Below, piece by piece: positions 36,221-56,705 of a stretch of 64,000 nucleotides of DNA (the first letter of the stretch is position 1; each line of letters begins with the position of its first letter). The translations under genes were made by a program, and so were the position numbers. The DNA is taken from NCBI GenBank assembly GCA_022822365.1, contig JAJEBV010000035.1, positions 10,082-74,081 on the forward strand, in the 5' to 3' direction. The notes under the pieces are model-generated. The model made no database searches. It had not been told where the DNA came from and saw nothing but the letters and a program-made list of their open reading frames with translations. The DNA is from Thermoanaerobaculia bacterium (GTDB taxonomy: Bacteria; Acidobacteriota; Thermoanaerobaculia; Multivoradales; Multivoraceae).

Positions 36221-36288
36221 GGCGGATGGTCCATTGAGGCCAGGTTCCGCCAGCGAAGACGCTGTAGCCGAAGGGCAGCGACGTCGCT

Positions 36289-36314
36289 CTGGGTGCGCGG
36301 GTCTTCTGACCCGC
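36289..36314. repeat. Copy C of a 26-nt hairpin repeat (CTGGGTGCGCGGGTCTTCTGACCCGC)
   Basis: Exact 26-nt match to the copies at 49498 and 50953 (reverse complement). Stem GCGGGTC/GACCCGC with loop TTCT. Confidence 0.7.
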
Positions 36315-36368
36315 ATCGGACGAGGCGCGAAGCGGCGAGGCCGCAGAGACTCGTTGCGCCCTTACACG

Positions 36369-38387
36369 ATGGTTGCAGCCGTAGCTGCAACCGTGCTTCC
36401 TTCCGTGGCGCCGGCCCGGGCCCAGGACAGCGACTGGCCGACGATCACCGGCGGCAACGACGCGGGCCGCTACGCCGCGCTCGACCAGATCGACGCCTCG
36501 AACTTCGCACGCCTCGAACCGGCCTGGCGCTGGCGGCTGCCGGACAACGACCTGATGGCGAACGATCCTCGCTTCGAGGACGCGTCGATGCAGCAGCGCA
36601 CGCATGTGACGACGCCGATCAAGGTCGGCGACCGGCTCTACGTCGTAACCGGCTACGGCATCGCCGCCGCCGTCGACCCGGCCGAAGGCACGACGATCTG
36701 GCGGCACGATCCCCAGAGCTACGGCCACGGCCGGCCGACGAACCACGGCTTCACCCACAAGGGACCCAGCTTCTGGCGCGACCCCGAGCACCCGGAGGCT
36801 CCCGGCCGCCTGATCTACGCCAGTACGGACGCCATCCTGCGCGCCGTCTACGCCGACGAGGGCACGGCGGTGCGCTCCTTCGGCAACCACGGCGGCGTCG
36901 ACCTGACCACCGGCCTGCACCGGGCGGTCGAACGCCGCAAGTACACCGTCAGCTCGCCGGCGACCATCTGCCGAGACGTCGCGATCGTCGGCTCATCCAT
37001 CTCGGACGGACCGCTCGGGCCGGACGACGGGCCGCCCGGCGATGTTCGCGGTTTCGACGTGCGGACCGGCAGGCAGCTCTGGACCTTCCACACCGTGCCC
37101 CGGGAAGGCGAGCACGGCACGGACACCTGGGAGGACGACTCCTGGCGGATCGCCGGCGGCGCGAACGTGTGGGGCCTGATGAGCGCCGACGAGGAACTCG
37201 GCCTCGCCTACCTGCCGACGAGCACGCCGACGAACGACTGGTATGGTGGCCACCGCCGCGGCGACAACCTGTACGCGGAGAGCCTGGTCGCGGTCGACTG
37301 CGAGACCGGCGAGCGCCGCTGGCACTTCCAGGCCGTCCACCACGGCCTCTGGGACTACGACTTCGCCGCGCCGGCCGTGCTGGGCGACATCGTCGTCGAC
37401 GGGCGCACGGTGAAGGCGGCGATGCTGCCGAGCAAGCAGGCCTTCCTCTACGTCTTCAACCGGGAAACCGGCGAACCCGTGTGGCCGATCGAGGAACGGC
37501 AGGTCCCCCAGACCGGCATCCCCGGCGAGCAGACCTCGCCCACCCAGCCCTTCCCCACCCGGCCGCCGCCATTCGACCGCCAGGGCATGCGGCTCGTCGA
37601 CGTCGTCGACTTCACACCCGAGATCCGCGCCGAGGCGGAACGCATCCTGACTTCGCACCAGTACGGGCCGATGTACACGCCGCCCAGCGAGCGCGGAACC
37701 GTCGCCATGCCCGGCTTCGAGGGCGGCGCGAGCTGGCCCGGCGGCGCCTTCGACCCGGACACCGGCAGGCTCTACGTGCCGTCCTTCACGGCGCCGATCC
37801 TGATCACGCTGCGGAGGCCTGACCCGAACCGCTCCGCGTTCGACTTCGTGGCCCGCGTGTCGGCGTTTCACGGCCCCTTCGACCTGCCGATCTCCAAGCC
37901 ACCCTGGTCACGAGTCACCGCCTACGACATGAGCCGCGGCGATATCGCTTGGCAGACCCCGCTCGGCGAGGGGCCGCGCCGCCACCCGAAGCTCGCCGCC
38001 CTCGACCTGCCGCTCCTCGGCTCCGGGGTCCGCGGCCACGCCCTGCTGACGAAGACGCTGCTCATCGTCAGCTCCGGCCACTCCCGCTCCTTCCGCTCCC
38101 AGGAGGCGAAGGCGGAGCGCGAGTGGAGCGAACAGCCCGAAGAAGTCACCGGCGGCCTCGCCTGGACCAATCCGCAATCGGCGGCGCGCGAGGACTGGCG
38201 CTACACCGTTCCCGCTGTCCGCGCCTTCGACAAGGCGACCGGCGACCTCGTCGCCGAAGTCGAGCTGCCGGCCCACTCCGATGGCAGCCCGATCACCTAC
38301 CTGCACCGCGGCGTGCAGTACCTCGTCGTCTCCATCGGCGGCCGCGGCGAGCCGTTCGAACTGATCGCCTACCGGCTCCCGGCTTGA
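36369..38387 (+). CDS. PQQ-dependent dehydrogenase (quinoprotein beta-propeller) with a signal peptide
   Basis: Repeated W-motifs of the PQQ beta-propeller; about 672 aa from the ATG at 36369. Confidence 0.8.
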   Translation: MVAAVAATVLPSVAPARAQDSDWPTITGGNDAGRYAALDQIDASNFARLEPAWRWRLPDNDLMANDPRFEDASMQQRTHVTTPIKVGDRLYVVTGYGIAAAVDPAEGTTIWRHDPQSYGHGRPTNHGFTHKGPSFWRDPEHPEAPGRLIYASTDAILRAVYADEGTAVRSFGNHGGVDLTTGLHRAVERRKYTVSSPATICRDVAIVGSSISDGPLGPDDGPPGDVRGFDVRTGRQLWTFHTVPREGEHGTDTWEDDSWRIAGGANVWGLMSADEELGLAYLPTSTPTNDWYGGHRRGDNLYAESLVAVDCETGERRWHFQAVHHGLWDYDFAAPAVLGDIVVDGRTVKAAMLPSKQAFLYVFNRETGEPVWPIEERQVPQTGIPGEQTSPTQPFPTRPPPFDRQGMRLVDVVDFTPEIRAEAERILTSHQYGPMYTPPSERGTVAMPGFEGGASWPGGAFDPDTGRLYVPSFTAPILITLRRPDPNRSAFDFVARVSAFHGPFDLPISKPPWSRVTAYDMSRGDIAWQTPLGEGPRRHPKLAALDLPLLGSGVRGHALLTKTLLIVSSGHSRSFRSQEAKAEREWSEQPEEVTGGLAWTNPQSAAREDWRYTVPAVRAFDKATGDLVAEVELPAHSDGSPITYLHRGVQYLVVSIGGRGEPFELIAYRLPA

Positions 38388-38409
38388 AGCCGAGTTCAGC
38401 CTCTACCGC

Positions 38410-39447
38410 CTATGCCCAGCGCGGCCCAGGCTTGTTCGTGGACGGCGTAGCATGGACTCCGGGAATCCGATCCCTGATCGCGAGCGCCAGTTCCCATCCG
38501 TAGCTCCGCGTGTTGTCCGTCACGACCCGCTTGGCTCCCGTCGCCTTGACGTACGCGAGGGTCTCCTCAAAGTCGGCATGATTCGACAAGGCAACACAGT
38601 AGCTGCTACTGGAGTACATTGTCAGCGGATCGTTGTGGCCATCCCGACCCGACATGAAGGCGCTGCACGCGATGCTCGTTCCGCCAACCGGCTCGTTGCC
38701 CCGCCCATCGCCCTTCGAGTACAACCGCACGTAGGAACGCTGCCTCAGTGCTGACTCGCCTTCATCCGAATCGAGCGCGATCAGATCGGCAGCCGCTAAG
38801 CCGAACCGCCTATAGACCTCGACTTCCCCAATCAGCCGCCGGCTCGCCACGATAGGAACATCAACGCCGCCAGCGAGCACCGTCAATACGCGCTCCATCG
38901 TTCCTCGGTGGGCCCTGATATGTACCGGCCCCTGACGTACGCGCTCACACACCAGAACGAACAGGCATGCCTCTGCTTCCGCCTGCGTGTACTTGCGAAC
39001 GCTCGCCGGACTGCCGTAGGTGGCGTCGACGACGAGTTCGTCAACTTGGATCACTCGATCGAGCGGCCAGCCGAAGTCGCCGGAGTAGCCGAGTCGTCGT
39101 CCGTCCGAAAGCTCCAGTGCCGTCTGGCAGGCACCGAGCATGTGGTTCGACGGCAGCAGAAGGAGCTGCGAAGCGTCTTCAAGGACGCGCTTCTCGCCTC
39201 GCTTCAGCCTATGGAGATTGGATCTGTACTCGAGGTCGACATCACGCTCATCCACGAGCAGCGCATACGTTTCCGGGCTCATGATGAGGTCCTGAAGCCC
39301 CTTGCTGCGCTCGAAGTCCGCCATGTGGTCGTCGTGCACATGGGTCTGAATGCGCCACGGACAGCCCTCGGCGAATCCGTCGCACACCACCGCCGGGCCA
39401 AGACGCACCGCACCCGTAGCCAAGACGTCAACTTCTGCTGGAGCCAC
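38410..39447 (-). CDS. MBL-fold metallo-hydrolase; last gene of the sulfur-modification/defence operon
   Basis: HVHDDH metal-binding motif. 20-nt overlap with the upstream gene. Confidence 0.65.
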   Translation of the reverse strand: MAPAEVDVLATGAVRLGPAVVCDGFAEGCPWRIQTHVHDDHMADFERSKGLQDLIMSPETYALLVDERDVDLEYRSNLHRLKRGEKRVLEDASQLLLLPSNHMLGACQTALELSDGRRLGYSGDFGWPLDRVIQVDELVVDATYGSPASVRKYTQAEAEACLFVLVCERVRQGPVHIRAHRGTMERVLTVLAGGVDVPIVASRRLIGEVEVYRRFGLAAADLIALDSDEGESALRQRSYVRLYSKGDGRGNEPVGGTSIACSAFMSGRDGHNDPLTMYSSSSYCVALSNHADFEETLAYVKATGAKRVVTDNTRSYGWELALAIRDRIPGVHATPSTNKPGPRWA

Positions 39448-40168
39448 TCTGGACGTTCTCCCGAAGATGGGCCCGAATCAGGCCTTCGATGCTCCCCCGC
39501 CCAACTTGAGCCATCGATTCGCCGAACTTCTCGGCTCCTACCAACGTGAAAATCCTCTTACCAAGCCGGCCTGATGCGCCGCGCAAGCCGATAGCCCGAA
39601 TCGCGCCAGCAAGAGCCGCATCGCGTTCGGCCTGTAGCAAGCTCCCGAGAGCGGCCACGACGTCCTCGTCAACGACGGCACCCATGAACACGTAACGCTT
39701 CTCTACGACCGGCCGCATCCCCACGACTTCCTGGACGCAGTCGGGAACGGCGCGACCGGAGCGCTCGCGAAGCTGCACGACCTGACGCACTTCCTTGCTC
39801 GTCAGGTGCTCGGACAAGACCGCTTCCGCGACCACCCGCCGGTCTTCGCTATCCGCGAGCCGGACCAGCTCGGCAGCGGATGAGAAGCCGACGAAGTCCC
39901 CTCTTCCCCAGTCCACCAAATGCTGAACCTCCGGCGGAAGGTCCAGTAATCGGAGGAACCGGCCAACACCCGTAACGTCGAGGTCTGTTTTCCTGGCACT
40001 CTCGACTCGGCTCGAACCCTCCCGCTCAGCGCGCCTGTACAGCCGCCCACACTCGACCGGGGAAAAGGGTCTGTTGCGTTGATGCCGCCCGTATCCGACG
40101 GACATCTTGAGCTGTGCGAGTTCCTCGGGACTCAGCCCCCGCCACACCCTATGAACCAAGGACGCCAC
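39428..40168 (-). CDS. Hypothetical protein in the defence operon, possibly a ParB-like or HTH DNA-binding partner
   Basis: 246 aa. Overlaps both neighbours. No confident family assignment. Confidence 0.4.
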   Translation of the reverse strand: MASLVHRVWRGLSPEELAQLKMSVGYGRHQRNRPFSPVECGRLYRRAEREGSSRVESARKTDLDVTGVGRFLRLLDLPPEVQHLVDWGRGDFVGFSSAAELVRLADSEDRRVVAEAVLSEHLTSKEVRQVVQLRERSGRAVPDCVQEVVGMRPVVEKRYVFMGAVVDEDVVAALGSLLQAERDAALAGAIRAIGLRGASGRLGKRIFTLVGAEKFGESMAQVGRGSIEGLIRAHLRENVQSGSSRS

Positions 40169-40973
40169 GTTCCATCAGCGCTTCCTCGATCAGCATGGCC
40201 GCAGTCTCGTCTTGGTTCATCCCCTCCTCCACCGCGACACGGCGAAGCGCAGCGTGAACGTCCATCGTCACGGTGGCGTTGATCTGAGTCACCTTGTCAG
40301 CGCTCTTCGCCCTCTCGATCAGCTCGTCGACACTCCCTTCGGGGGCTCGTTCGCGCACCTTCGTCAGCTTCTTCTGCTGAACACCGGACATGTCTCCCAT
40401 CGCCCTAGCCAGCTTCACGGCGTCGGCAACGATCGGTTGGCCGTCCGGCCCGACGGACGTGTCCTGAGCCTTCAATGCGACCTTCACGTCCACAGCACCG
40501 TCGTCGACCATCTTCTTCAGCTCCGGCTTGAGCCTCGGGTACTTGACGTGGCTGCGGACTGTGTCAGCCGAGAGTCCGGTCGCCTCCACGACAGCCTTCT
40601 GCGAGCCGTAGTGGTTGTACAGATGGGTGATTCCGTCGACAAGCTCCTTGCCCGAGAGCTTTCTCCGAATCAGATTCTCCGTGATCGAGATGGCCTTGGC
40701 GTGAGCCTCGGGAACACGCTCGTCCAGAATCGCTGCAGGGATCGCCTCCCTGCCGAGCCGCCTGTGCGCGAGGAATCGTCGCTGTCCCGTGAGGATCTCC
40801 CACCGCCCCGTCTCAACCGCCTCGCACACCACGATGGGCTGCAGAAGGCCCAGTTTCTCGATGCTGCTCGCCAACTCATCCACGTCTGCCATGGAAGGCG
40901 AGGTTCGCGCCTGCGCCTTGCCGATCGTCAGGTCGTCCAGCGGCACATCCCTGTATCCGACTATCTTCGCCAT
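40149..40973 (-). CDS. ParB/Srx-fold (ParB N-terminal nuclease-like) protein, DndB-like in position
   Basis: LLQPIVV...GQRRF ParB-N motif; 274 aa. Confidence 0.6.
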   Translation of the reverse strand: MAKIVGYRDVPLDDLTIGKAQARTSPSMADVDELASSIEKLGLLQPIVVCEAVETGRWEILTGQRRFLAHRRLGREAIPAAILDERVPEAHAKAISITENLIRRKLSGKELVDGITHLYNHYGSQKAVVEATGLSADTVRSHVKYPRLKPELKKMVDDGAVDVKVALKAQDTSVGPDGQPIVADAVKLARAMGDMSGVQQKKLTKVRERAPEGSVDELIERAKSADKVTQINATVTMDVHAALRRVAVEEGMNQDETAAMLIEEALMERGVLGS

Positions 40974-42358
40974 GCTCGTTCTCCAGGTTCGTCAGTCACC
41001 GGCGCGAGATCGCCGGCGGAAAGCCCGAGGATACTCATCAGCTCCTGCCTCGTGAACGCCTCCCCGGCCATGCCGGACGACTCCACCACGTCCTCGAAGA
41101 GGCGCGCCTTCTCTTCGAGGATCGACCCGATCCGCTCCTCGATCGAGTCCTGCACGAGGAACCGGATCACGTGCAGGGGCTCCTCTCGCTCGAAACGGTG
41201 CGCTCGGAAGATCGCCTGCATCTCGACCGCCGGATTCCACCATCGGTCGAAGAGAACCACATGGGACGCCTCTCCCAAGTTGAGGCCGACACCGCCCGCG
41301 CGCAGCGAGACGAGCAGAACCCGAGGCGCCCTTTCTTCCCTGAAGCGGTCCATCGCCGCCTCACGCTTCGCGAGCGGCATCGCACCCGTGACGAGGTCCG
41401 TAGTTAGGCCCAGTCGCGGCGAAATCGCCTCCAACGTCCTCACGAACTGGGAGAAGACGAGAATCCGCGCCGAAGGACCCGCCGCATGGCACAGCACCCG
41501 CAGGGAATCCAGTTTGGACGAAACGCTCATAGAGGAATCGAAATTGCAGATCAGCTTCAGTCGCGTGAGGAGCCCCAGCAAAGCCGCAGTGTCGCCGTCC
41601 TCGTTGCGCCGCCGCACAAGACGGGCACGCGTCGTCCAGATCTCGTCGTACTCGGCGCGCTGGTCCGCCGACAGATCCACCGGGAGGTCCTGAATCAGGA
41701 CCGGAGGCAGTTCCGCACGGACCGCGGTCTTCCGCCGTCTGAGCATCAGCCTGTCCAAGTCTCTTTGGAGCTCCCCCCTATGCGCCCTCCGGACTGGACC
41801 GTCGGATTCCAGAAACTCCAACAGCGTCTGCAGTTCTGCCTCGTCGTTCTCCAGAGGCGTAGCCGACAGTGCCCACGCACGAGTCCGCGGAAGCAGAAGG
41901 CAGGCCAAAGCCGTTGCTGAGTTGCGGTTCTTGATCCTCTGGGCCTCGTCCAGCACAACCAAGTCAAACGTGCCAGAAGGAATACGGTCGAGTCCGTCCT
42001 GGCGAATCTGCTCATACGAAGCGATGAGGACCGGGATCGGAAGAAGGTAATACGCCTCTCGGTCGGTCGCTCGTCCTTGCACCCGTCTTGCGGTCAGGGA
42101 AGGTGCCCAAGCGTTGATCTCCCGCAGCCAGTTCGTAGTCAACGATGCAGGCGCCACGATCAGCACCCGGCGAATCCCGTGGTCCCTTCTCAACAGCAGC
42201 GCTAGAGCGACCGCAGCCTGTACTGTCTTGCCGAGGCCCATCTCGTCGGCCAAAAGAGCACCGCGCGTGCGATAGAGGAAGGCCACCCCTTCCCACTGAT
42301 AGTCGCGCAGCGTTGAAGGCACCCCGAGTTCCTCCTCCGCCATCTGGCGGAGGGTCAT
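40961..42358 (-). CDS. SNF2-family helicase (DEXH-box plus helicase-C)
   Basis: LADEMGLGKT, DEAQRIKN and helicase-C motifs. ATG at 42358 preceded by GGAGAAGGA. Confidence 0.75.
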   Translation of the reverse strand: MTLRQMAEEELGVPSTLRDYQWEGVAFLYRTRGALLADEMGLGKTVQAAVALALLLRRDHGIRRVLIVAPASLTTNWLREINAWAPSLTARRVQGRATDREAYYLLPIPVLIASYEQIRQDGLDRIPSGTFDLVVLDEAQRIKNRNSATALACLLLPRTRAWALSATPLENDEAELQTLLEFLESDGPVRRAHRGELQRDLDRLMLRRRKTAVRAELPPVLIQDLPVDLSADQRAEYDEIWTTRARLVRRRNEDGDTAALLGLLTRLKLICNFDSSMSVSSKLDSLRVLCHAAGPSARILVFSQFVRTLEAISPRLGLTTDLVTGAMPLAKREAAMDRFREERAPRVLLVSLRAGGVGLNLGEASHVVLFDRWWNPAVEMQAIFRAHRFEREEPLHVIRFLVQDSIEERIGSILEEKARLFEDVVESSGMAGEAFTRQELMSILGLSAGDLAPVTDEPGERAWRR

Positions 42359-42381
42359 CGCATCGGGGTCCTTCTCCGAAT

Positions 42382-44172
42382 CTAGGGAAACGCCCACACT
42401 GCCGCGGCTTGCCTGGCGATCAGGTTCTGCCGCTCCTCGACCGCCTCGGGAGTCCACTCACACTGCTCGCAGAGCGCCCGAGTGATGGCAACGCTGCTCC
42501 GCTTGTAGCTACCGATCTTGTCGTGAAACGAGCGGTTGAAGTTGGTACCGGCTCGATTGTCCGTCGGCCCCATGAGAGTCAGATTACCCACCCGGTCCAC
42601 CCAATCGGCGCAATCCACCTCCCGAAAGCCGCTCCAAGTTGGCCAGTGCTGAGCCGCCGAGGGCAGGACGTGTTCTAGCGTGGTTTTGCCCTCGTTTAGC
42701 AGCGGAGGATCGTTCTGCTCTGCCCGGTTCACGCCTCGCAACAACTGGCGGGCCAGGCGTCCTCTCTTCATTCGAGTACTCCGAAGTGCCCGGATGAAGT
42801 ACGCGTCGTCCAGCACACCCCATCCGTCGCAACCGCCAAGGAACTCCCCGAAAGCAAGGTCCGCGACATCTGTGGCCGCGGCGATCTCCCGAGCGTAGTC
42901 GGCGAACTTCCTCTCAAACTCCGACGGGGCGAAGCGCTGCCTCACGAACGCCGTCCTGAGTACAAAGGCCGACAACCGCTGTAAGTTCCTCATCACGGCC
43001 TTGGCGATCCGGGCGCGACGTCGGCCATCAGTATCGCGGACAAACCTGTCCAGCAGGGCGAAAACGAGCGGGTGAGTGACCTTGTAGCCGCGGAGTTCTC
43101 CCAGCAGCACGGAGAGATTCCGCCGCGACGTTACAGCACCCGCCGCCACGTCGAACACCCCGACAAAGCCCGGATCGGGATTCGTGGAAGTCATCATGCG
43201 AAAGAGTTCCGCAGCCGCCGGCGAGCAAACATCCTCGACCAACGCTGACACATAGCGCGTCGATTTGGCCTTTTCTTCGCCAGCTTCTGTCGTCACGGAC
43301 CGACGACGATCCGTCAGCGCCCTCCGTGCATCGCGATAGAAGTGGCTGCCTCTCAGGAACCCCCACTTGCACTGAAGACGGCACCGTAGGTACTCAGCAG
43401 CGAGATTACCTCTCGGGAAGAGAGTGCGAACACGCTCGAGATGCTCGTGGATCGCCTCCTTCCCCTCTAAATCACTGTCTCCACCGAAATAGGAGTAGAG
43501 GTGATTCCGAAGACGGTCCAGATCGTCCAGGGTCTTGCCTCTGGAATTGATCGTCTCGAAAACGGCATTGGCATCGACTTCCGGAGGAAGGCGGAGACAC
43601 GCCACTTCAAGACGTTGGATCAAATAGTCGAAGTAGTCCCTTGATGCTTCGAGCCCCAGCCCGTCGACGAACTGCTCTATCTTCTGCCACGCGGCCGTCA
43701 GCTTGCCGTTCGTCCCGATCGTCCGGCCCCGGATCATCTGTCGGTAGGCCGCCGAGTCATTCCGCGGAGGTTTGAGCCGGCGCGTGTACTCGTCTGCCTC
43801 CGCCAGCCGGCAAGGCCGGTTTGCGTCCAAGTCGAACAACAATCGAAGCGCGATCGCCTCGCGCTGAGGATCGCTGTCGTCCCGAGCGAACCGCCTGCAG
43901 AAGGCGGCGGAGACGAGTGAAACTGTGACCATCCTCTGCTGGCCGTCGTTGATCTCCCACACTCCGTCCCCGTTGCCGGCGAGGATCACCGCACCAAGGA
44001 AGTAGCAACCGCTCTTCGCCTCGACGGCCTCCTGGAGGTCCTCAAGCAGGTCGCTAACCTCGTTCTGACTCCAGTCGTAGTAGCGCTGATGCCACGGCAC
44101 CTCGAATCGCCCATCGAAGAACAGATCTGAGAAGCGCGTTGCCTCGGCTTGGACGACGGTCGGCTGGGTCAT
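42382..44172 (-). CDS. DUF262 (ParB-like NTPase, DGQQR) plus DUF1524 (His-Me finger) nuclease, GmrSD/SspE-like
   Basis: N-terminal WHQRYYDW...INDGQQR and C-terminal TLEHVLP...W. ATGA overlap with the upstream PAPS-reductase-like gene. Confidence 0.75.
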   Translation of the reverse strand: MTQPTVVQAEATRFSDLFFDGRFEVPWHQRYYDWSQNEVSDLLEDLQEAVEAKSGCYFLGAVILAGNGDGVWEINDGQQRMVTVSLVSAAFCRRFARDDSDPQREAIALRLLFDLDANRPCRLAEADEYTRRLKPPRNDSAAYRQMIRGRTIGTNGKLTAAWQKIEQFVDGLGLEASRDYFDYLIQRLEVACLRLPPEVDANAVFETINSRGKTLDDLDRLRNHLYSYFGGDSDLEGKEAIHEHLERVRTLFPRGNLAAEYLRCRLQCKWGFLRGSHFYRDARRALTDRRRSVTTEAGEEKAKSTRYVSALVEDVCSPAAAELFRMMTSTNPDPGFVGVFDVAAGAVTSRRNLSVLLGELRGYKVTHPLVFALLDRFVRDTDGRRRARIAKAVMRNLQRLSAFVLRTAFVRQRFAPSEFERKFADYAREIAAATDVADLAFGEFLGGCDGWGVLDDAYFIRALRSTRMKRGRLARQLLRGVNRAEQNDPPLLNEGKTTLEHVLPSAAQHWPTWSGFREVDCADWVDRVGNLTLMGPTDNRAGTNFNRSFHDKIGSYKRSSVAITRALCEQCEWTPEAVEERQNLIARQAAAVWAFP

Positions 44173-45383
44173 CCCGCCGCGACTTCCCTGGGCGCCAATC
44201 CGACAGCCACGCGAAGCGCTGAACGGCACTCCTCCCGCACCAAGTCACGGCGCCAGATGTCCTCGATGACCTCCTGCTCGGCAGGCGAAATGAGCTGTTG
44301 ACTCACATCGTCCTGAAGAGCCCGCAGTTCATCGAGGATCCTCTTGCGCACACCAAGCGTGAACGGTCCCATGACCTGACTGCCGTCAGCTCGGAACCGG
44401 ACATTCCCGTCCCTGCGAACCGACTCGCGGTTTCCGTCTTGCTCCCGGAGTTCAACGAGCCACTCCCGGAACTCGAAAAGCCGGCTGAAGACATCGGCTT
44501 CCGCATGGCCCGACGCGATCAGACCCCGGAGGCTTCGGTCCTTCTTTACGACGGTGCAGGTCCAGCAGCCGAAACGAGGCGAGTTCGTCCCGCATGAAGG
44601 AGCGTCGTCCTTCGTCAACACGAGAGGACATTCGCCCCCGCCGGCATTGCGGTAGAGCGTGATCAGATTTCTGTGGGTGCCGCCCCAAGGCGGACGGCGC
44701 TGCATCAGCACCAGCCAGACATCCTGGTCCTCAAAATCGGCGAGTGGAGCGAACATCCAGCAGCGATCCATGGTGCCGTGCGGGTTCAGTTTCCCGGCCG
44801 CAACCCCGCGCCTGTCCATCGTCCGACGCCGGTTGTCAGACTCGCTCCTGCGCGTGCCCACCAGCAGAACAGCACCGCCATATGTGCGAATGAGATTGGC
44901 GAGCAGCCGGTTGGTTGGATGGATCTTCATTCGGTCCGTACACCAGCGGAAGTTCCGAGTCGGCGGTATGTAACCGCGACCGATCACGTTGACCCAGAAT
45001 GTCTGATCGACATGAGGCTTCGTGATCCGAGTCTCAATGGGCAGGTCGGCGGCGGCCGCCGCGCCCCCGATCTCCGTGAGAGTCGTTCGCAGGTGGCCGA
45101 CGACGAGCGGTGACTCGACTAGCGTGTCGTTGCCGACGACGTACACCTTGCGACACCGCTCGGCTGCCGGCAGGTCCGCGATGACCTCCCAAGTCAGTTG
45201 AAGCAGGAGCGTGGAGTCCTTGCCGCCCGAGAATGCCACGACCCACGGATGAGCATGGCCAGCCAGATACTGCTCCCTGATGGCGAGCTTGGCGGCACCG
45301 AGCCGCTTGACGACCTCGGCGACGCCCCCGCCAGCATCGGCGGAATGGCCTGAAGAGACCACCGCAGTCATGCCGTGACCCAA
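44169..45383 (-). CDS. PAPS-reductase-family ATP pyrophosphatase, DndC/SspD-like
   Basis: SGGKDS PP-loop and a C-terminal cysteine cluster (C-x9-C-x2-C); 404 aa. Confidence 0.7.
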   Translation of the reverse strand: MGHGMTAVVSSGHSADAGGGVAEVVKRLGAAKLAIREQYLAGHAHPWVVAFSGGKDSTLLLQLTWEVIADLPAAERCRKVYVVGNDTLVESPLVVGHLRTTLTEIGGAAAAADLPIETRITKPHVDQTFWVNVIGRGYIPPTRNFRWCTDRMKIHPTNRLLANLIRTYGGAVLLVGTRRSESDNRRRTMDRRGVAAGKLNPHGTMDRCWMFAPLADFEDQDVWLVLMQRRPPWGGTHRNLITLYRNAGGGECPLVLTKDDAPSCGTNSPRFGCWTCTVVKKDRSLRGLIASGHAEADVFSRLFEFREWLVELREQDGNRESVRRDGNVRFRADGSQVMGPFTLGVRKRILDELRALQDDVSQQLISPAEQEVIEDIWRRDLVREECRSALRVAVGLAPREVAAG

Positions 45384-46648
45384 CGCTGCTCTTGAGCGTG
45401 CCTTTCCGGCTGGCGACCAGACGTCCCGACCTCGGTCCAGCTAGAAGAAAGCTGCCGAAGGTCGGCTATCGTCTCTCTCAGTCGCGCCACGGCGAAGTCC
45501 ACTTCCTCCACTGTCGTACTCCGGCCTAAGCTGAATCGAACCGAGCAGGCTACCGCCTCCTCGGACAGCCGAAGCGCAGTCAGGACATGGGACGGCTCCA
45601 CGCGGGCCGAAGTACAGGCCGAACCTGATGAGATCGCCACTTCGTCCCGAAGGGCCACTAGCAAGGCCTCGCTGTCTATGCTGGCAAAGCCGGCGCTGAG
45701 GATTCCCGGCACTCGAACTCCCTGGTTGCCATTCAGGAAGCTGCAGGGGATCTCTTCTAGTAGAACCCGGAGCCGCCGGTCCAGCGCCGCCGTCGCCTCA
45801 GCATCTTCGTCCAGGCGCTCGCACGCCAGCTCAGCGGCCTTGCCCATCCCCACAACCTGGTGAGTGGCGAGGGTGCCGGAACGAAGGCCTTGTTCCTGGT
45901 CGCCGCCATGCATCTGAGGTTCAAGCGGGGAGGGACAGGAACTCCGTACGTAGAGCGCGCCAACCCCCTTCGGACCGTACATCTTGTGGCCGCTCAGGGA
46001 AACGAGATCCGCCCGTATCTCCCGTACATCCAGCGGCAAGCGCGCCGCACTTTGGCTCGCGTCAACGTGGAAGACGACGCCGCGCTCCCGCGCAAGGCGT
46101 CCAACGGCCGCCACGTCGGTGATCGTGCCGATCTCGTTGTTTACGTGCATGAGGGAGACGAGAATCGTGTCGCGCCGCAATACACGCTCGATGCTCTGCC
46201 ATGTGACGGTTCCGTCAGTGTGGGGGTCGACCAGCGTAACCTCGAACCCCTCCCGAGCCAGTCGAGCACAGGAATCCAGGACCGCCTTGTGCTCCATTGA
46301 CGAAGTGACGATATGTCGGCCACGGCCGCGCGCACCGCAGGCGGCACCCTTGATCGCCAGATTGATCGACTCGGTAGCCCCGGAGGTCCAGACGATCTCA
46401 GCCGGGTCGGCAGCCACGAGTTGGGCCACTTGTTCGCGGGCCGCTTCCACCGCCGCCTTGGCCTCGACGCCGAATCGATGCGGCCGCGAGGCCGCATTGC
46501 CGAAGAGCCCCTCCAGCCCCAAGCAACGGGACATCGCCTCCGCGACCTCCGGTGCTACAGGCGTCGTCGCGGCGTAGTCAAGGTAGACGCAACTCGCCGT
46601 TCGCCGTTCGGTGCCCTGGTGGTAACGGTTCATCAAGAGGCGCTTCAA
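45368..46648 (-). CDS. Cysteine desulfurase (IscS/NifS-like), DndA/SspA-like in position
   Basis: SGHKMYGPKG PLP-lysine motif and SSGSACTS active-site cysteine loop; 426 aa. Confidence 0.8.
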   Translation of the reverse strand: MKRLLMNRYHQGTERRTASCVYLDYAATTPVAPEVAEAMSRCLGLEGLFGNAASRPHRFGVEAKAAVEAAREQVAQLVAADPAEIVWTSGATESINLAIKGAACGARGRGRHIVTSSMEHKAVLDSCARLAREGFEVTLVDPHTDGTVTWQSIERVLRRDTILVSLMHVNNEIGTITDVAAVGRLARERGVVFHVDASQSAARLPLDVREIRADLVSLSGHKMYGPKGVGALYVRSSCPSPLEPQMHGGDQEQGLRSGTLATHQVVGMGKAAELACERLDEDAEATAALDRRLRVLLEEIPCSFLNGNQGVRVPGILSAGFASIDSEALLVALRDEVAISSGSACTSARVEPSHVLTALRLSEEAVACSVRFSLGRSTTVEEVDFAVARLRETIADLRQLSSSWTEVGTSGRQPERHAQEQRWVTA

Positions 46649-46726
46649 GGCGATGGGCCTGCGGCGCGTTCGGATCCTACTAGGCCAGCAGACAGGGCAA
46701 CCGCTCGACGGGTCCTCGTTGCCCGC

Positions 46727-47965
46727 CTACTCAGCCGGCCACGGCGTCCCCAGGTCCTCCTCCGGCACCGGCTGCATGCCCATGTTCACGAACTTCTGCA
46801 GCCGCTTCCCCTCGTAGGTCTCCGTCGTGTAGATGTTGCCCTTCGAGTCGGTCGCGATGCTGTGAACGGCGAAGAACTGGCCGGGCTGGCGGCCGCCGTC
46901 GCCGAAGGCGTAGAGCACCTCCATGCTCTCCCGCTCGATCACGTGGACCTTCATGTTCTGGCCGTCGGCCAGGTAGAGGAACTTCTGTTCGGCGTCGGGC
47001 GAGAAGGCGACGTCCCAGGTCGAACCCTGGGAGAGCGTCTCCGGCGCGATGAAGACCTCTTCGACGTACGTGCCGTCGGCCTCGAAGACCTGAATGCGGT
47101 CGGCGGCCCGGTCGCATACGTAAAGCAGGCCGTCCGCCGCGATGTCGGCGCAGTGGACCGGACCGCGGAACTGCGTCGCCGGCGGATCCCCGGGAGCGTA
47201 CTGGCCGAGGTCGAGTTCGTCGTCGGGCGCCTCGCCATAGGCGCCCCAGAAGCGCTTGAACTCGCCGGTGTCCGCATCGATCACGACCACGCGCCGGTTG
47301 AAGTAGCCGTCGGCGACGTAGACCTCGTTCGCCGCCGGATCGACCGAGAGCTTCGCCACCCGGCCGAAGTTCTCCATGTCGTGGCTGTTGCGGACGAACC
47401 GCGGCTCGTCCTCGCCGGCCCCTTCGTTGACGAGGGCGTTCGCCTTGCCGACCTGCATCAGGAACTGGCCGTCGCGGGTGAACTTCAGCGCGTGGGAGTC
47501 GCCGCCGCCGTTGCCGCCGATCCACACGTTGTCCATGTGATCGACGAGGATGCCGTGGTTGGACGCCGGCCATTCGTACTCGCCGGTCTCGCTCGGACCG
47601 CCCCAGTGGCCGACCAGGTTGCCGTCGGGGTCGAACTCCAGCACCGGCGGCGCCGGGATGCAGCACTCGGAGAGCGGCGGATCCTGCGCCGCGCCGATCT
47701 CGTTGATCGCGCCGAACGCCCCCGGCGTGTTCCGGTGAACGATCCAGACGTGGTCGCGGGAGTCGACCGCGACGCCGATCGCCGGGCCGAGAATCCAGTG
47801 GTTCGGCAGCGGCCGCGGCCAGAACGGATCGACCTCGAAGCGCGGCGCCATCGGCCCGTCGCCGGTGACCTCATCGCCGCCGTAGCCGCCACCATCGCCG
47901 CAAGCGGCGAAGACCAGTACAAGGGCCGCGCAGCCGAGAGCACAGTGCGAACGCTTCCAAGTCAT
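46727..47965 (-). CDS. NHL-repeat six-bladed beta-propeller lipoprotein (PAL-like fold)
   Basis: FAAC lipobox. Repeated NHL-type motifs. Confidence 0.55.
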   Translation of the reverse strand: MTWKRSHCALGCAALVLVFAACGDGGGYGGDEVTGDGPMAPRFEVDPFWPRPLPNHWILGPAIGVAVDSRDHVWIVHRNTPGAFGAINEIGAAQDPPLSECCIPAPPVLEFDPDGNLVGHWGGPSETGEYEWPASNHGILVDHMDNVWIGGNGGGDSHALKFTRDGQFLMQVGKANALVNEGAGEDEPRFVRNSHDMENFGRVAKLSVDPAANEVYVADGYFNRRVVVIDADTGEFKRFWGAYGEAPDDELDLGQYAPGDPPATQFRGPVHCADIAADGLLYVCDRAADRIQVFEADGTYVEEVFIAPETLSQGSTWDVAFSPDAEQKFLYLADGQNMKVHVIERESMEVLYAFGDGGRQPGQFFAVHSIATDSKGNIYTTETYEGKRLQKFVNMGMQPVPEEDLGTPWPAE

Positions 47966-51020: not shown

Positions 51021-52097
51021 ATGGACAGCAAGAACCACCCCGCCGCAGTCACGCCGGTTCGTTCGGCGTCGGTGCACTCCGTCGCCGGAGACGAAGAGGC
51101 TCAGGCGACGTTCGAGGCCCGCGGCTGGACCGACGGCCTGCCCATCACGCCGCCGACGCCGGAACGGGTGGCGGCCGCGCTCGAGGCGGCGGTCATGGAG
51201 CCGGGCCAGGTACTGGGCGTGGAGACGGTGCGCGGCCGGGCGATCACGGCCCAGAAGGCGGCGATCAACGCGGTGATGGCGGGCTGCCGGCCGCGCGACT
51301 TCGCGGTCGTCGCCGCCGCGGTCGAGGCGATGTGCGACCCGGAGTTCCTCCTGCACGGCGCCACCTCGAGCACGGGCGGCTGCGCTGTGCTGATCGTCGT
51401 CAACGGACCGATCCGCCGGGAACTCGGCATGACCGGGACGTTCAACGCGCTCGGCGGCGCCGACCGGGCCTCGCCGGCGATCGGCCGCGCGCAACGGCTC
51501 ATCCTCCGCAACCTGCTCGGGGTCCGGCCGGGAGAACTCGACCGCTCGACCCTGGGACACCCGGGGAAGCTTGGCTACTGTCTCGCCGAGGACGAGGAGG
51601 GTTCGCCATGGCCGTCCCTTGCCGCCGAACGCGGGGCGCCCGACGGCACGTCGACGGTGACCGTCTTCGCCGCCGGCGCGCCGCGCCAGATCATGAACGA
51701 GTGGACGACGGAGCCGGAAGCGATCCTCGACACGATCGCGGCCGAGATGCGGGCGAATCTGCTGCACTACTCGATCTGGGCCGGCAACCACTGCCTCGTC
51801 CTGCCGCCGCAGTTGCGGGACCGGCTGGCCGGCGAAGGCTGGAGCAAGGCCGACATTCGCGAGTACCTGCACCGGCAAGCGCGCGTGCGCCGCGGCGACT
51901 GGGAACAGGTCGGCAAGGCGGCCGTCGTGACCGAGGCGAACCGGGATCAGGAGTACGGGGCGCTCGAATCGCCGGATGACCTGCTGATCGTCGCCGCCGG
52001 CGGCCCGGCGGGAGGGTTCGCGGCGGTGATTCCGCCCTGGTTCGGCAACAAGTCGCGGGCGGTGACGGCGGGCGTGGGGTTCTGCCTGGAGTGCTGA
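51021..52097 (+). CDS. Hypothetical protein
   Basis: 358-aa ORF with coding-like composition. C-terminal CxEC. No confident family assignment. Confidence 0.45.
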   Translation: MDSKNHPAAVTPVRSASVHSVAGDEEAQATFEARGWTDGLPITPPTPERVAAALEAAVMEPGQVLGVETVRGRAITAQKAAINAVMAGCRPRDFAVVAAAVEAMCDPEFLLHGATSSTGGCAVLIVVNGPIRRELGMTGTFNALGGADRASPAIGRAQRLILRNLLGVRPGELDRSTLGHPGKLGYCLAEDEEGSPWPSLAAERGAPDGTSTVTVFAAGAPRQIMNEWTTEPEAILDTIAAEMRANLLHYSIWAGNHCLVLPPQLRDRLAGEGWSKADIREYLHRQARVRRGDWEQVGKAAVVTEANRDQEYGALESPDDLLIVAAGGPAGGFAAVIPPWFGNKSRAVTAGVGFCLEC

Positions 52098-52103
52098 GGG
52101 GCC

Positions 52104-52622
52104 TCAGTCCTCGCAGGACGCGCTGAGCAGGTCGCTCAGCGCCACTCCCGAAACCAAGCCGCGGTAGCGGCCGCAGACCTCGCCGTTCTCAAGCCGCACC
52201 ACGAAGACGGCGTCGGCACGATCCTCCTCCTCGCCGTTTGAGCCAGCCAGATCCCGCCAGGCGTCCGCACCTTCCTCGACGACCAGAAACGACTCCTGGC
52301 GCGCCGGGGGAACGTCGCCGCGGAGCGCGCGGACCACCATCCGCCGAACGAACGCGGGCGCTCCTTCGAGCACGACCACCGTGTAGACCGACCAGCCCTC
52401 CGTCCGCCGATCGTCATCGAGAACGCGCCGCCACTCCCGTGCGGCGCCGTTCGCGACGCGATGGAAGCTGGCGACGAGAATCGACCGCGCGCCCAGGTCC
52501 GCCGGAGCCGCGACCTCGTTCCCGGCAAGAGTGACCGCCCGCGGGATCTCGCTGGACGCGGCCGCGCCGACGGCCCCGAGCACCAGGCACAGGCCGGCCG
52601 CGACCGCGCTCCGCAAGGCCAT
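52104..52622 (-). CDS. Hypothetical secreted protein
   Basis: 172 aa with an N-terminal signal peptide. Confidence 0.4.
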   Translation of the reverse strand: MALRSAVAAGLCLVLGAVGAAASSEIPRAVTLAGNEVAAPADLGARSILVASFHRVANGAAREWRRVLDDDRRTEGWSVYTVVVLEGAPAFVRRMVVRALRGDVPPARQESFLVVEEGADAWRDLAGSNGEEEDRADAVFVVRLENGEVCGRYRGLVSGVALSDLLSASCED

Positions 52623-52626
52623 CCGC

Positions 52627-53427
52627 CTACGCCGCGCTCCGGAAGCGCATCACCCGATAGCACCTTGTGCGCTCGAAGGCCTCCGGATCGAGCAGCCGGT
52701 CAAGCCGGTCAAGCCAGCGGGTCACGGGCCCGGCCAGACGCCAGGCGGCGCCGGCCATACGGGGGAAGCGCTGCGTCGACGCTTCGCGCGCGAGACTCAC
52801 GACCCCGCGGCCGAAGCGCTCCACGATCGCCTGTCCGAGACGGAGCGTCGGCAACACCGAGAAGGTCACGTCTTCGTCCGTCTCGAGAACGAGGCCGGCC
52901 GCCTCGGCCCGGGCAAGGAAGTCGCCAAGCGGGTGACCGCTCTTCGGCTTGCCCGTCTCGCCCGCGTCCACGGTGAAGTAGTCGCAGAGCAGCACGCAGC
53001 CTCCCGGGGCCAGCGACCGCCGGACCGCGTCGAAGAACTCGTCGAGCCACACGTACTGCGCCGACTCGCACAGGAACAGGACGTCGTACCGGCGGTCCGG
53101 CTCGAACTCCTGGAAGCGGCCCAGGTGGAAGCGTCGATCCGGCAGCCGTTCCCTGAACAGCTTGCCGTGGTAGGGATCGGGCGACAGGCCTTCGACGTCG
53201 TAGCCGAGTGCGAGCAACCGTTCGCTGATCGCGCCGGTGCCACAGCCGACGTCGAGCACGGACGTGACCCCCGGCGGCAACAGCTCGAACAGGCGCGCCA
53301 CGAGGCGCTCCTGAGCCCGCCGCAACCCGGCCACGTCGAGCGGGTCCTGCTCGCTCCAGATCCCGAAGTTCAGGAGATCCAGGCCGACGATCCGGTGCAG
53401 GAACTGGAGCGCGAAGCTCGTCTTCAC
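52627..53427 (-). CDS. Class I SAM-dependent methyltransferase
   Basis: VLDVGCGTG motif I. Probable GTG start at 53427, because the N-terminal 75 aa of the ORF-track call are low-complexity. Confidence 0.55.
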   Translation of the reverse strand: MKTSFALQFLHRIVGLDLLNFGIWSEQDPLDVAGLRRAQERLVARLFELLPPGVTSVLDVGCGTGAISERLLALGYDVEGLSPDPYHGKLFRERLPDRRFHLGRFQEFEPDRRYDVLFLCESAQYVWLDEFFDAVRRSLAPGGCVLLCDYFTVDAGETGKPKSGHPLGDFLARAEAAGLVLETDEDVTFSVLPTLRLGQAIVERFGRGVVSLAREASTQRFPRMAGAAWRLAGPVTRWLDRLDRLLDPEAFERTRCYRVMRFRSAA

Positions 53428-53832
53428 CTGCCGCGGGCTGTTACCGTCCGCGGGCCGCCGGAACAGCTGCCGTCCCTGCGGTCCCGGCCAGCGACGTGGC
53501 GCCGCGGGGACCGGTGCAGGGGCAGAGGCCACGCCCGAGCGCGGAGGTGGCGGAACGACGCGCAAACTCACCGGGGCAAGAGTGTACCGCCCACGGCGCC
53601 CGGGATAGGGTCGCCTTATCGACCGGAAGATCCATCGCGCCGGCCGGCGCATCGACCATGTGAGCTGCGGCGAGAGTGGCGGGCAAGGCGGAATGGCTCG
53701 AAGACGGCGGCAATCCCCGCTTCGTCGCCACCAGTCTGTCGAGAAGCCGCGCCGGCAGACAGGCGCTCTACGAGCAGCTCTACTGCAGACCGACTCTCGA
53801 CCTCGACCGCCTCGCGGGGTACGATCTGCCCG

Positions 53833-54075
53833 ATGACGTTCGACACCCTCGCCGCCGCCCGGACCCTGGAGGACGCCGGTCTGACTTCCAAGCAGGCCGA
53901 AGCGGTGACGACTACGATCCGCGTAGCGATCGCCGAAGGCACCGCCACGAAGGAGGACATCACCCGCCTGGAGGCGAGACTCGCGGAACTCGAAACGCGC
54001 CTGACTTGGCGGATGTTCGCCGTTGTCGGCGGGCTGCTGGCCTTGGTGACGGCGCTCGACCGGCTGATCGGCTAG
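53833..54075 (+). CDS. Small coiled-coil plus C-terminal TM protein (DUF1640-like)
   Basis: 80 aa from the ATG at 53833; sits at the end of a long spurious ORF. Confidence 0.4.
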   Translation: MTFDTLAAARTLEDAGLTSKQAEAVTTTIRVAIAEGTATKEDITRLEARLAELETRLTWRMFAVVGGLLALVTALDRLIG

Positions 54076-54210
54076 GACTTCGGATCTCGGACGGCGCTCC
54101 TGGGTCGCTCAAGGGCGACAATTGACAATGCCCCTTGGCCACACGTCGTCCGCCGCCGACGTGAGCCCCCGTCAAACGCTCAACCAGCGTCTCACACGAA
54201 TACAGCGCGG

Positions 54211-54273
54211 CACGGCTTCGAGCTCCGGCCGTTCGATTTCTTCGACCGCAACCCGGCGCTCGACCTGCCCTGA
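54211..54273 (+). pseudogene. Relic 3' end of a paralogous copper amine oxidase gene
   Basis: 63 nt encode HGFELRPFDFFDRNPALDLP*, identical in protein to the C-terminus of the gene ending at 56345, with only synonymous nucleotide differences. Confidence 0.6.
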
Positions 54274-54347
54274 CCGCTAGACTCGGGGGACCGGTCTCCT
54301 GAGCCACCGACACGGCCTCCCCCATCCGAGGCCTCAAGGGAGCAACC

Positions 54348-56345: not shown

Positions 56346-56705
56346 AACGGGGCGCAGAGCGGGCGCGACAAATCTGTCGCGCTCAAACACTGGCCGCACA
56401 TTCCTGTGCGGCCCATCCGAGTCGACCGCTTCGCCGAGCCGGTCGCTGAGCTTGGCCAGGGGCTCCCCGGGGCGTCCCTGGACAGGCTCTAAGTCCCATG
56501 GAACCGGGCGTTTCCCGGTCGCCGTCCGGCCGCCGCCCGGGCCGGCGCCCGCGACCGGCGGCAACCCGCACGGTTGGCACGATTCTCGATACATGAGGGG
56601 GCACGCCCGGCCGTCAGTTCCGGAACCTGACCTCGGCTGAGACCCCAAAGGGGGCGACAATCGAGACGCTCGGCCGGGCCAACCGAACTACGAGGAGGTA
56701 CTCGA

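Follow-up and report, generated by a model that had tools for sequence, protein, structure and literature searches.

A DndC-type sulfurtransferase paired with a DUF262-HNH nuclease in a probable phosphorothioate-based anti-phage cassette of uncultured bacteria

We analysed a stretch of 64,000 nucleotides from a Thermoanaerobaculia bacterium (GenBank assembly GCA_022822365.1, contig JAJEBV010000035.1, positions 10,082 to 74,081), referred to here as the window. Its minus strand carries, from position 46648 to 38410, a cassette of seven tightly packed genes that is probably a DNA-sulfur-based (phosphorothioate, PT) anti-phage system. In order, these encode an IscS/DndA-like cysteine desulfurase, the sulfurtransferase DndC, a DUF262-HNH nuclease as the third product, an SNF2-family ATPase, a ParB protein, a helix-turn-helix (HTH) ParB-like protein and a beta-CASP nuclease. 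Across the related loci examined, DndC and the DUF262-HNH protein are an invariant, co-diverging pair, and the genes that follow them belong to modules that are swapped from locus to locus.

The DndC/DUF262-HNH pair

The DndC gene (44169..45383, minus strand, likely start ATG 45371), encoding a PP-loop ATP pyrophosphatase, runs directly into the gene for the nuclease (42382..44172, minus strand, 596 residues), which joins a DUF262 (ParB-like nucleoside triphosphatase, NTPase) domain to a DUF1524 (HNH) domain. An earlier interpretation made from the DNA letters and open reading frames, referred to here as the sequence-only reading, had placed an ATGA start/stop overlap between the two genes at 44169..44172 (minus strand), and this is exact: the junction reads ...GCGGCGGG ATGA CCCAG..., with the ATG at 44172-44170 and the DndC TGA at 44171-44169. 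The span of 42358-44229 given there for the nuclease needs correction, as 42358 is the first base of the SNF2 ATG and 44229 belongs to an in-frame GTG upstream of the nuclease ATG. Since 15 of 15 homologues start at the ATG position, we set the gene at 42382-44172. Its stop codon is the TAG at 42384-42382, leaving 23 nucleotides, not the 21 proposed, before the SNF2 ATG at 42358, and this gap holds a GGAG-rich, ribosome-binding-like stretch. The stop of the desulfurase gene and the first ATG of DndC form another ATGA overlap (45368-45371), if DndC starts there, so that the desulfurase, DndC and nuclease genes are chained by two 4-nucleotide overlaps. Two related loci, L166 and L170, show this double overlap as well. 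The idea that the nuclease is embedded inside the modification genes was not borne out, as it follows both of them (DndA and DndC) and no known modification gene comes after it.

The 92 related loci comprise 87 compared by tblastn with the seven window proteins and 5 added by look-ups from the beta-CASP or DndC side; non-redundant sets of 79 loci for the DndC/nuclease junction and 78 for module typing were drawn from them. In 92 of 92 loci, the gene immediately upstream of the DUF262-HNH gene is DndC. The two genes share an NTGA overlap in 51 of the 79 non-redundant loci, across many phyla, and in most of the others a gap of at most 24 nucleotides separates them; the recurrence of NTGA indicates that the overlap is more than chance. 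The pairwise identities of DndC and of the nuclease correlate (r = 0.85), with a mean of 0.66 for DndC versus 0.47 for the nuclease. Median identity to the window protein is 44% for the DUF262-HNH protein, 50% for the HTH-ParB-like protein, 60% for ParB, 61% for SNF2, 62% for beta-CASP and 64% for DndC, making the nuclease and the HTH-ParB-like protein the two fastest-diverging components.

The nuclease is a member of the GmrSD-like DUF262-DUF1524 superfamily, with Pfam matches to GmrSD_N/DUF262 (E-value 1.3e-22) and GmrSD_C/DUF1524 (4.8e-18), and with its motifs intact it is predicted to be an NTPase and nickase. In an alignment with 15 homologues, the DGQQR NTPase motif (residues 76-80; 43933..43947, minus strand) is invariant, as are E500, H501, N530, D538, N539 and N546 of the HNH/His-Me finger region (42535..42675, minus strand). 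The HMMER alignment to the DndI structure (PDB ID 9JFL) sets R80, H501 and N539 against DndI R87, H508 and N541, and the position of DndI N532 is also matched; the DUF1524 catalytic residues, whose absence would have told against the sequence-only reading, are in place. In DndI, the R87A substitution abolishes ATPase activity and N541A strongly cuts nicking, and both impair defence (PMC11662687). Residues Q79, R80 and the E-H pair of HEC-06 are essential for defence (bioRxiv 10.1101/2024.01.29.577857), and the window protein matches HEC-06 in numbering at R80 of its DGQQR motif and likewise at Q79.

The AlphaFold2 model of the nuclease (predicted local distance difference test score, pLDDT, 82.6; predicted template-modelling score 0.71) has significant Foldseek matches to DndI (6e-17), SspE (from 7e-13 for PDB ID 7DRS to 3e-4) and BrxU (1.5e-3) and to no other protein, a fold resembling that of the solved superfamily members. 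The template-modelling scores against the solved members are 0.36-0.49, owing to a differing domain orientation. The best PADLOC profile is HEC-06 (PDLC04157; 1.4e-65), followed by Orf5 (3.2e-51) and SspE (3.4e-10). We take the Orf5 profile to be equivalent to DndI, the name Orf5 being absent from the DndI paper as read. The best-scoring aligned stretch for HEC-06 is the N-terminal half of the nuclease (residues 5-296), with a second matched stretch reported, and for SspE it spans only about 70 residues near the N terminus. Against DndI itself, identity is about 20%, and the nuclease scores 1.4e-13 by sequence and 8e-23 in a PDB profile search; its score with the HEC-06 profile is higher. Residues P26, H28 and Q29 align with P23, Y25 and Q26, the patch by which DndI senses PT; a His that is invariant in the DUF262-HNH family stands where DndI has the Tyr.

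The nearest characterised relatives are DndI (PDB ID 9JFL) and HEC-06, not SspE. The earlier description as an SspE/GmrSD-like nuclease is right about the GmrSD/SspE/DndI superfamily and about the presence of the catalytic residues, but the protein is closer to DndI and HEC-06 than to SspE. We rejected an identity with SspE on account of the DndC-type writer, the length (596 versus about 770 residues) and the PADLOC E-value of only 3.4e-10, and an identity with DndI in the strict sense on account of the identity of about 20%, the other gene context and the missing sensor Tyr.

The upstream partner, previously called DndC-like, proved to be a true DndC, scoring 343 bits against the TIGR03183 cutoff of 290 (NCBIfam). 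PADLOC gives 8e-111 for DndC versus 1.4e-5 for SspD, Pfam assigns PAPS_reduct, and the SGGKDS motif and C148, C208, C252, C264, C273 and C276 are invariant in the family; no PDB chain was matched by sequence. The nearest DndC proteins outside the family are 43-52% identical, also about 400 residues long, and encoded in DndA-DndC-DndD-DndE loci, some of which continue with a PbeC-like ATPase and a DndE-FtsK fusion (L088). We rejected a special "short" form of DndC: although both the TIGR03183 and the PRK06850 profile exceed it in length, the ends of the nearest canonical DndC proteins lie no more than about 20 residues from its own. The desulfurase gene (45368..46648, minus strand) encodes about 420 residues, its exact start being uncertain, and is present in about three-quarters of the related loci. 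The protein matches Pfam Aminotran_5 (6e-81) and the PADLOC profiles SspA (1.8e-149) and DndA (1.5e-146), and NCBIfam assigns it to the IscS type with scores below the equivalog cutoffs; because its TIGR03235 score of 405 bits lies below the cutoff of 480, we label it IscS/DndA-like.

Exchangeable modules and genomic setting

What follows the pair differs among the related loci. In type A loci (49 of 78), as in the window, it is a block encoding SNF2, ParB, HTH and beta-CASP proteins. In type B loci (19 of 78), a small GIY-YIG protein and DndB take this place, the former GIY-YIG-like and of about 120 residues and the latter of 420 residues in L001, L009, L029, L031, L036, L043, L052 and others. 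Type A and type B modules alike couple a ParB-superfamily protein with a nuclease. Three loci were typed C, two of them verified, with a PbeC/DndD-like ABC ATPase, a DndE::FtsK fusion, an AAA_21 (AriA-like) ATPase and a DUF4435 (AriB-like) protein (L015, 12125-17707; L042, 6049-11755); the third, L040, shows only a large SMC-like open reading frame (ORF), unlike the verified two. L015 resembles L088 with DndD-DndE swapped for the DUF262-HNH gene. Nothing recognisable follows the pair in 5 of the 78 loci. Type A and type B loci lack both DndD and DndE.

About a third of the loci lack the type A block or have another module in its place. In L065 the whole block has moved upstream in inverted orientation, and ParB, HTH and beta-CASP genes occur without SNF2 in two loci (L039 and L060). 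The SNF2 gene therefore belongs to the swappable block and not to the nuclease. Module type differs between nearest neighbours in 20 of 78 cases, in some at 83-86% nuclease identity. The DUF262-HNH/SNF2 junction ranges from -19 to +302 nucleotides, and among the 45 non-redundant loci for which it was scored, 10 have an overlap of 1 or 4 nucleotides.

DndC is retained in decaying copies. In L168 (9215-11010) the nuclease gene is split by a frameshift and SNF2 is truncated beside an intact DndC, and in L170 (9200-11411) an insertion-sequence transposase sits within the DUF262-HNH gene beside intact DndA and DndC; in L082-L084 the DUF262-HNH gene is matched only partially. The reverse, a broken DndC with an intact nuclease, was found in none of the loci examined. 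Decay of the nuclease beside an intact DndC is the pattern expected of a restriction gene. Sulfur-binding domains of the ScoMcrA type recognise phosphorothioate DNA, and ScoMcrA-type genes encoding such a domain with HNH (PF26340 and HNH_2) adjoin the cassette in six loci (L166, at 12524-13456 on the minus strand, and L025, L055, L079, L019 and L073), a modest hint that the DNA carries PT.

In the window, the block begins with a minimal SNF2-family ATPase of 465 residues that consists of two RecA lobes only (40961..42358, minus strand; Pfam SNF2-rel_dom 2.8e-43 and Helicase_C 1.2e-19). Residues 11-449 match the Sulfolobus Rad54-like core (PDB ID 1Z63; 7e-38), and the Walker A DEMGLGKT, the DEAQ motif and motif VI are invariant. 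Its best PADLOC matches, DpdE (7.9e-59) and ZorD, cover the motor core only (DpdE profile positions 697-1171 of 1176), and there is a weak match to the DrmD core (4e-35). The ParB N-domain protein (40149..40973, minus strand, 274 residues) has CTPase-type motifs, with GQRR (63-66) and TENLxRR (98-104) invariant; it matches Pfam ParB_N (6.1e-16) and TIGR00180 above the cutoff. The HTH_ParB-like DNA-binding protein (39428..40168, minus strand, about 239-246 residues; Pfam HTH_ParB 2.5e-6) likely starts at GTG 40147, judging from homologue N-termini. The last gene (38410..39447, minus strand) encodes a metallo-beta-lactamase protein of 345 residues with HxHxDH at residues 36-41, a weak Pfam Lactamase_B_2 match and an NCBIfam match to ligase-associated exonuclease. 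As the top Foldseek matches of its AlphaFold2 model (pLDDT 80.4) are SNM1A, Artemis, Apollo, CPSF73 and RNase J (E-values of about 1e-14), we assigned it as a beta-CASP nuclease; the homologue search returned only close family members with more than 60% identity.

SNF2 overlaps ParB by 13 nucleotides and the HTH gene overlaps the beta-CASP gene by 20; ParB and the HTH gene overlap or abut (about 1 to 20 nucleotides), the likely HTH start at GTG 40147 being 1 nucleotide past the ParB stop. Separate promoters and terminators between the genes had been named as evidence that would speak against a shared operon, and no signal above chance was found in 37500-47500: a sigma-70 consensus scan gave no promoter-like site, and the 7 terminator-like sites, versus 6.0 expected by shuffling, all lie within coding sequence, both scans being weak tests in an Acidobacteriota genome of 69% G+C. 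The G+C content of the cassette (window 38000-46000) is 0.62-0.64, compared with about 0.69 in the flanks. Its neighbours are metabolic, namely a pyrroloquinoline quinone (PQQ) dehydrogenase (36234-38387), a luciferase-like monooxygenase and an NHL-repeat protein (46727-47965), and do not form a defence island. The flank ORF listings and Pfam checks revealed no integrase or other mobility marker; no search was aimed at tRNA genes or flanking repeats. Homologues of DndB, DndD and DndE were found nowhere in the 64-kb window by tblastn, which included DndD and DndE from L088 and L015. Farther along, the long ORFs 51021-52097, 52531-54075 and 54192-56660 have no Pfam match at E ≤1e-4, and some may be spurious shadow ORFs.

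Comparison with known defence systems

The closest counterpart with a solved structure is DndI of the IscS-DndBCDE-DndI system of Salmonella enterica Cerro 87 (PDB ID 9JFL; PMC11662687), which, like the cassette nuclease, is a DUF262(DGQQR)-HNH protein of 596 residues and works there with IscS and DndC-made PT. DndI is the best solved-structure match to the cassette nuclease by both sequence and fold, with the equivalents of R87, H508 and N541 kept. However, dndI is co-transcribed with dndFGH and not with dndC, whereas the cassette nuclease gene is coupled to DndC; DndI has no SNF2, ParB or beta-CASP partners; and the cassette is without DndB, DndD and DndE, with the sensor Tyr25 changed to an invariant His. 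None of the seven cassette proteins has a PADLOC match to DndFGH, although no search was aimed at DndFGH. HEC-06, a GmrSD-like defence gene validated by experiment and the best PADLOC profile, has Q79, R80 and the EH motif in common with the nuclease, but it is found inside Hma systems and defends alone, whereas the cassette gene always stands beside DndC. As is proposed for the cassette, the SspABCD-SspE system combines a PT writer with a DUF262-DUF1524 nickase that has a PT-sensing NTPase, and the fold match to SspE (PDB ID 7DRS) reaches 7e-13. It differs in that the cassette writer is of the DndC type, that Pfam finds no SspB or SspC domains in the cassette, and that SspE is about 770 residues long.

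The DndD-DndE scanning pair is regarded as the core of the PT writer (PMC10853773). The writer of the cassette is of the Dnd type, but it lacks this pair. With canonical DndABCDE, accompanied by DndFGH or PbeABCD, the cassette shares DndA and DndC, and L015 and L042 keep a PbeC/DndD-like ATPase and DndE-FtsK; the difference lies in the missing DndD-DndE scanner, whose slot is taken by the DUF262-HNH gene. A further compact PT system is TdpABC, in which TdpAB is a hexameric translocase and nuclease and not a DUF262-HNH protein. As far as the description in a citing paper goes (PMC12914056), one DndC-like enzyme writes PT there in the absence of DndD and DndE, TdpC being reported to do so alone (An et al., Nat Chem Biol 2025, as cited in PMC12914056).

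An SNF2 ATPase adjoining a DNA-modification module is also found in DISARM, as DrmD. The sequence-only reading had drawn a loose parallel to DISARM-like use of SNF2, and this holds as far as the presence of SNF2; the analogy is loose, since the cassette has no DrmA, DrmB (DUF1998), DrmC or methylase and its SNF2 protein is a bare motor of 465 residues. The Dpd system resembles the cassette in placing an SNF2 protein (DpdE) by a modification module and in having a ParB-like ATPase (DpdB), but DpdE is much larger and is matched at its motor core only, and Pfam finds no DpdA (tRNA-guanine transglycosylase, TGT) in the cassette. In the literature, we found no description of a DndC-DUF262-SNF2-ParB-beta-CASP cassette. 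Two broad surveys by Aravind and Krishnan on the neighbourhoods of Dnd and BREX systems (PMC10853773 and PMC12839542) cover ParB-HNH and Dnd-linked nucleases and not this arrangement, and the seven-gene set appears to be undescribed as such.

Possible mechanism and distribution

With moderate confidence, we propose that the cassette combines a DndA/DndC PT writer with a DndI-like reader nickase and an optional translocase/exonuclease arm. DndA would hand persulfide sulfur to DndC, which would mark host DNA with PT without the DndD/DndE scanner. The DUF262-HNH protein would read DNA in the manner of DndI, with PT-stimulated NTP hydrolysis freeing the enzyme from self DNA while unmarked invading DNA is nicked. 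The SNF2, ParB and HTH proteins may load onto DNA and track along it, and the SNM1-like beta-CASP exonuclease may enlarge the nicks, so that these four proteins would constitute a second restriction arm with a role comparable to that of DndFGH. The tight translational coupling would hold writer and nuclease in a fixed proportion and thereby limit self-damage.

Several observations weigh against this proposal. Canonical DndC requires DndD and DndE, and the DUF262-HNH gene fills the exact slot of DndD-DndE, which fits a role in writing as well as one in reading. The PT-sensing Tyr of DndI (Y25) and SspE (Y30) is the invariant H28 here, with the Pro and Gln kept, and the best PADLOC match, HEC-06, acts as a stand-alone defence gene. 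A fusion of DndC with DUF262 was found in none of the 120 closest DndC homologues, all of which have 366-421 residues and PF01507 only. Moreover, the role given to the SNF2, ParB, HTH and beta-CASP block is putative and is read from domains only.

The slot shared with DndD-DndE leads to an alternative that we consider unlikely, in which the DUF262-HNH protein would be a subunit of the PT writer and not a restriction enzyme, its NTPase and nickase replacing DndD/DndE and opening the backbone for DndC. Restriction would then fall to interchangeable arms, namely SNF2-ParB-HTH-beta-CASP, GIY-YIG with DndB, or the PbeC-like ATPase with DndE-FtsK. SspB is a nickase in the Ssp writer, and known PT systems keep the writer and vary their restriction modules. 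The nuclease stands next to DndC in 100% of loci with the NTGA coupling conserved, the 64-kb window, like the type A and B loci, lacks DndD and DndE, the closest outside DndC proteins sit in DndC-DndD-DndE(-PbeC-like-DndE::FtsK) loci such as L088, and L015 and L042 resemble L088 except that the DUF262-HNH gene stands in for DndD-DndE. Yet the characterised DUF262-HNH proteins (DndI, SspE, BrxU, GmrSD and HEC-06) are all restriction effectors, and the nuclease diverges faster than DndC (0.47 versus 0.66), as is more typical of an effector facing conflict. That DndC is intact beside a broken DUF262-HNH gene in L168 and L170 also argues against a writer subunit, loci consisting only of DndA, DndC and DUF262-HNH would be left without a restriction function, and TdpC, in the account given by the citing paper (PMC12914056), is reported as a sole PT writer.

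The SNF2 gene is the other point on which readings diverge. The sequence-only reading had made SNF2 and the DGQQR/HNH nuclease partners in restriction, which in its strict form means one obligate ATP-dependent complex with SNF2 supplying the scanning. The SNF2 motifs needed for ATP hydrolysis are intact, its gene comes next, 23 nucleotides downstream in the window, 10 of 45 scored junctions are overlaps of 1 or 4 nucleotides, and the authors of the DndI study leave the scanning mechanism undetermined. But about a third of the loci have the nuclease without SNF2 (types B, C and those with nothing recognisable), L039 and L060 keep ParB-HTH-beta-CASP minus SNF2, and the block of L065 is inverted upstream as a unit; the junction also varies from -19 to +302 nucleotides, and modules switch between nucleases that are 83-86% identical. 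We therefore regard an obligate complex as improbable: the two genes are adjacent here and their products may cooperate in this variant, but the family does not require SNF2. Least probable, and in our view a marginal prospect, is that the genes are independent neighbours, with a stand-alone, PT-independent nuclease of the HEC-06/GmrSD type (type IV-like) and a separate SNF2/ParB/nuclease system lying beside DndA-DndC. Defence genes commonly cluster, HEC-06 as the best PADLOC profile defends alone, and the PT-sensing Tyr is not conserved; against this stand the DndC adjacency in every locus across at least 12 phyla, the conserved 4-nucleotide overlaps, the correlated divergence, and the position of the window cassette among metabolic genes and not in a defence island.

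Close relatives of the DUF262-HNH protein, about 596 residues long, number more than 500, and a scan at one genome per species gave 80 loci (L006-L085). All 92 related loci come from metagenome-assembled genomes (MAGs) or metagenome contigs, and the genomic matches are all uncultured MAGs. They represent at least 12 phylum-level lineages, including Acidobacteriota, Latescibacterota, Chloroflexota, Binatia, Gamma- and Alphaproteobacteria, Thermodesulfobacteriota, Rhodothermales, Nitrospinota, Nitrospirales, Poribacteria, Spirochaetia and Dadabacteria. Many of the carrier MAGs are linked to sponges, such as the jk18x bins from Ircinia, Poriferihabitaceae and Porisulfidus in sponge genome notes, Poribacteria, and Ca. 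Multivorans. The window is closest to Candidatus Multivorans/Thermoanaerobaculia MAGs (91-94% identity), in which the cassette and its flanks are syntenic. As the carriers are uncultured MAGs of at least 12 phylum-level lineages, many of them tied to sponges, intense horizontal exchange is suggested, that is, a cross-phylum spread of the cassette within one habitat. An earlier study reported that genes for DNA phosphorothioation, "even though not functionally complete", are enriched in sponge metagenomes (Horn et al. 2016, PMC5099237), and the distribution of the cassette may account for this enrichment.

In one related locus, L169, transposase genes flank the whole cassette (5386-6570 and 15002-16096). 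Cassette relatives were found in none of the IMG/VR viral contigs. Among 72,556 plasmids, the beta-CASP protein had no match, and the DUF262 proteins encoded there are distant only, with less than 34% identity.

PT-based defence is known from the Dnd, Ssp, BREX type 4 and Tdp systems. To these, the cassette would add a Dnd-type writer without DndD/DndE that is always tied to a DndI-like nuclease and can be combined with any one of at least three accessory modules. If the DUF262-HNH protein were instead part of the writer, the system would comprise a PT writer made of two proteins, together with a new restriction module of the SNF2/ParB-clamp/SNM1-like kind, horizontally spread among uncultured bacteria, many of them sponge symbionts. 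The cassette thus offers a natural experiment on whether DndC can write PT without DndD and DndE. It also bears on scanning and self/non-self discrimination by DndI-type nucleases, the sensor Tyr being a His here, and on what SNF2 motors, ParB clamps and SNM1-like exonucleases may add to modification-based immunity.

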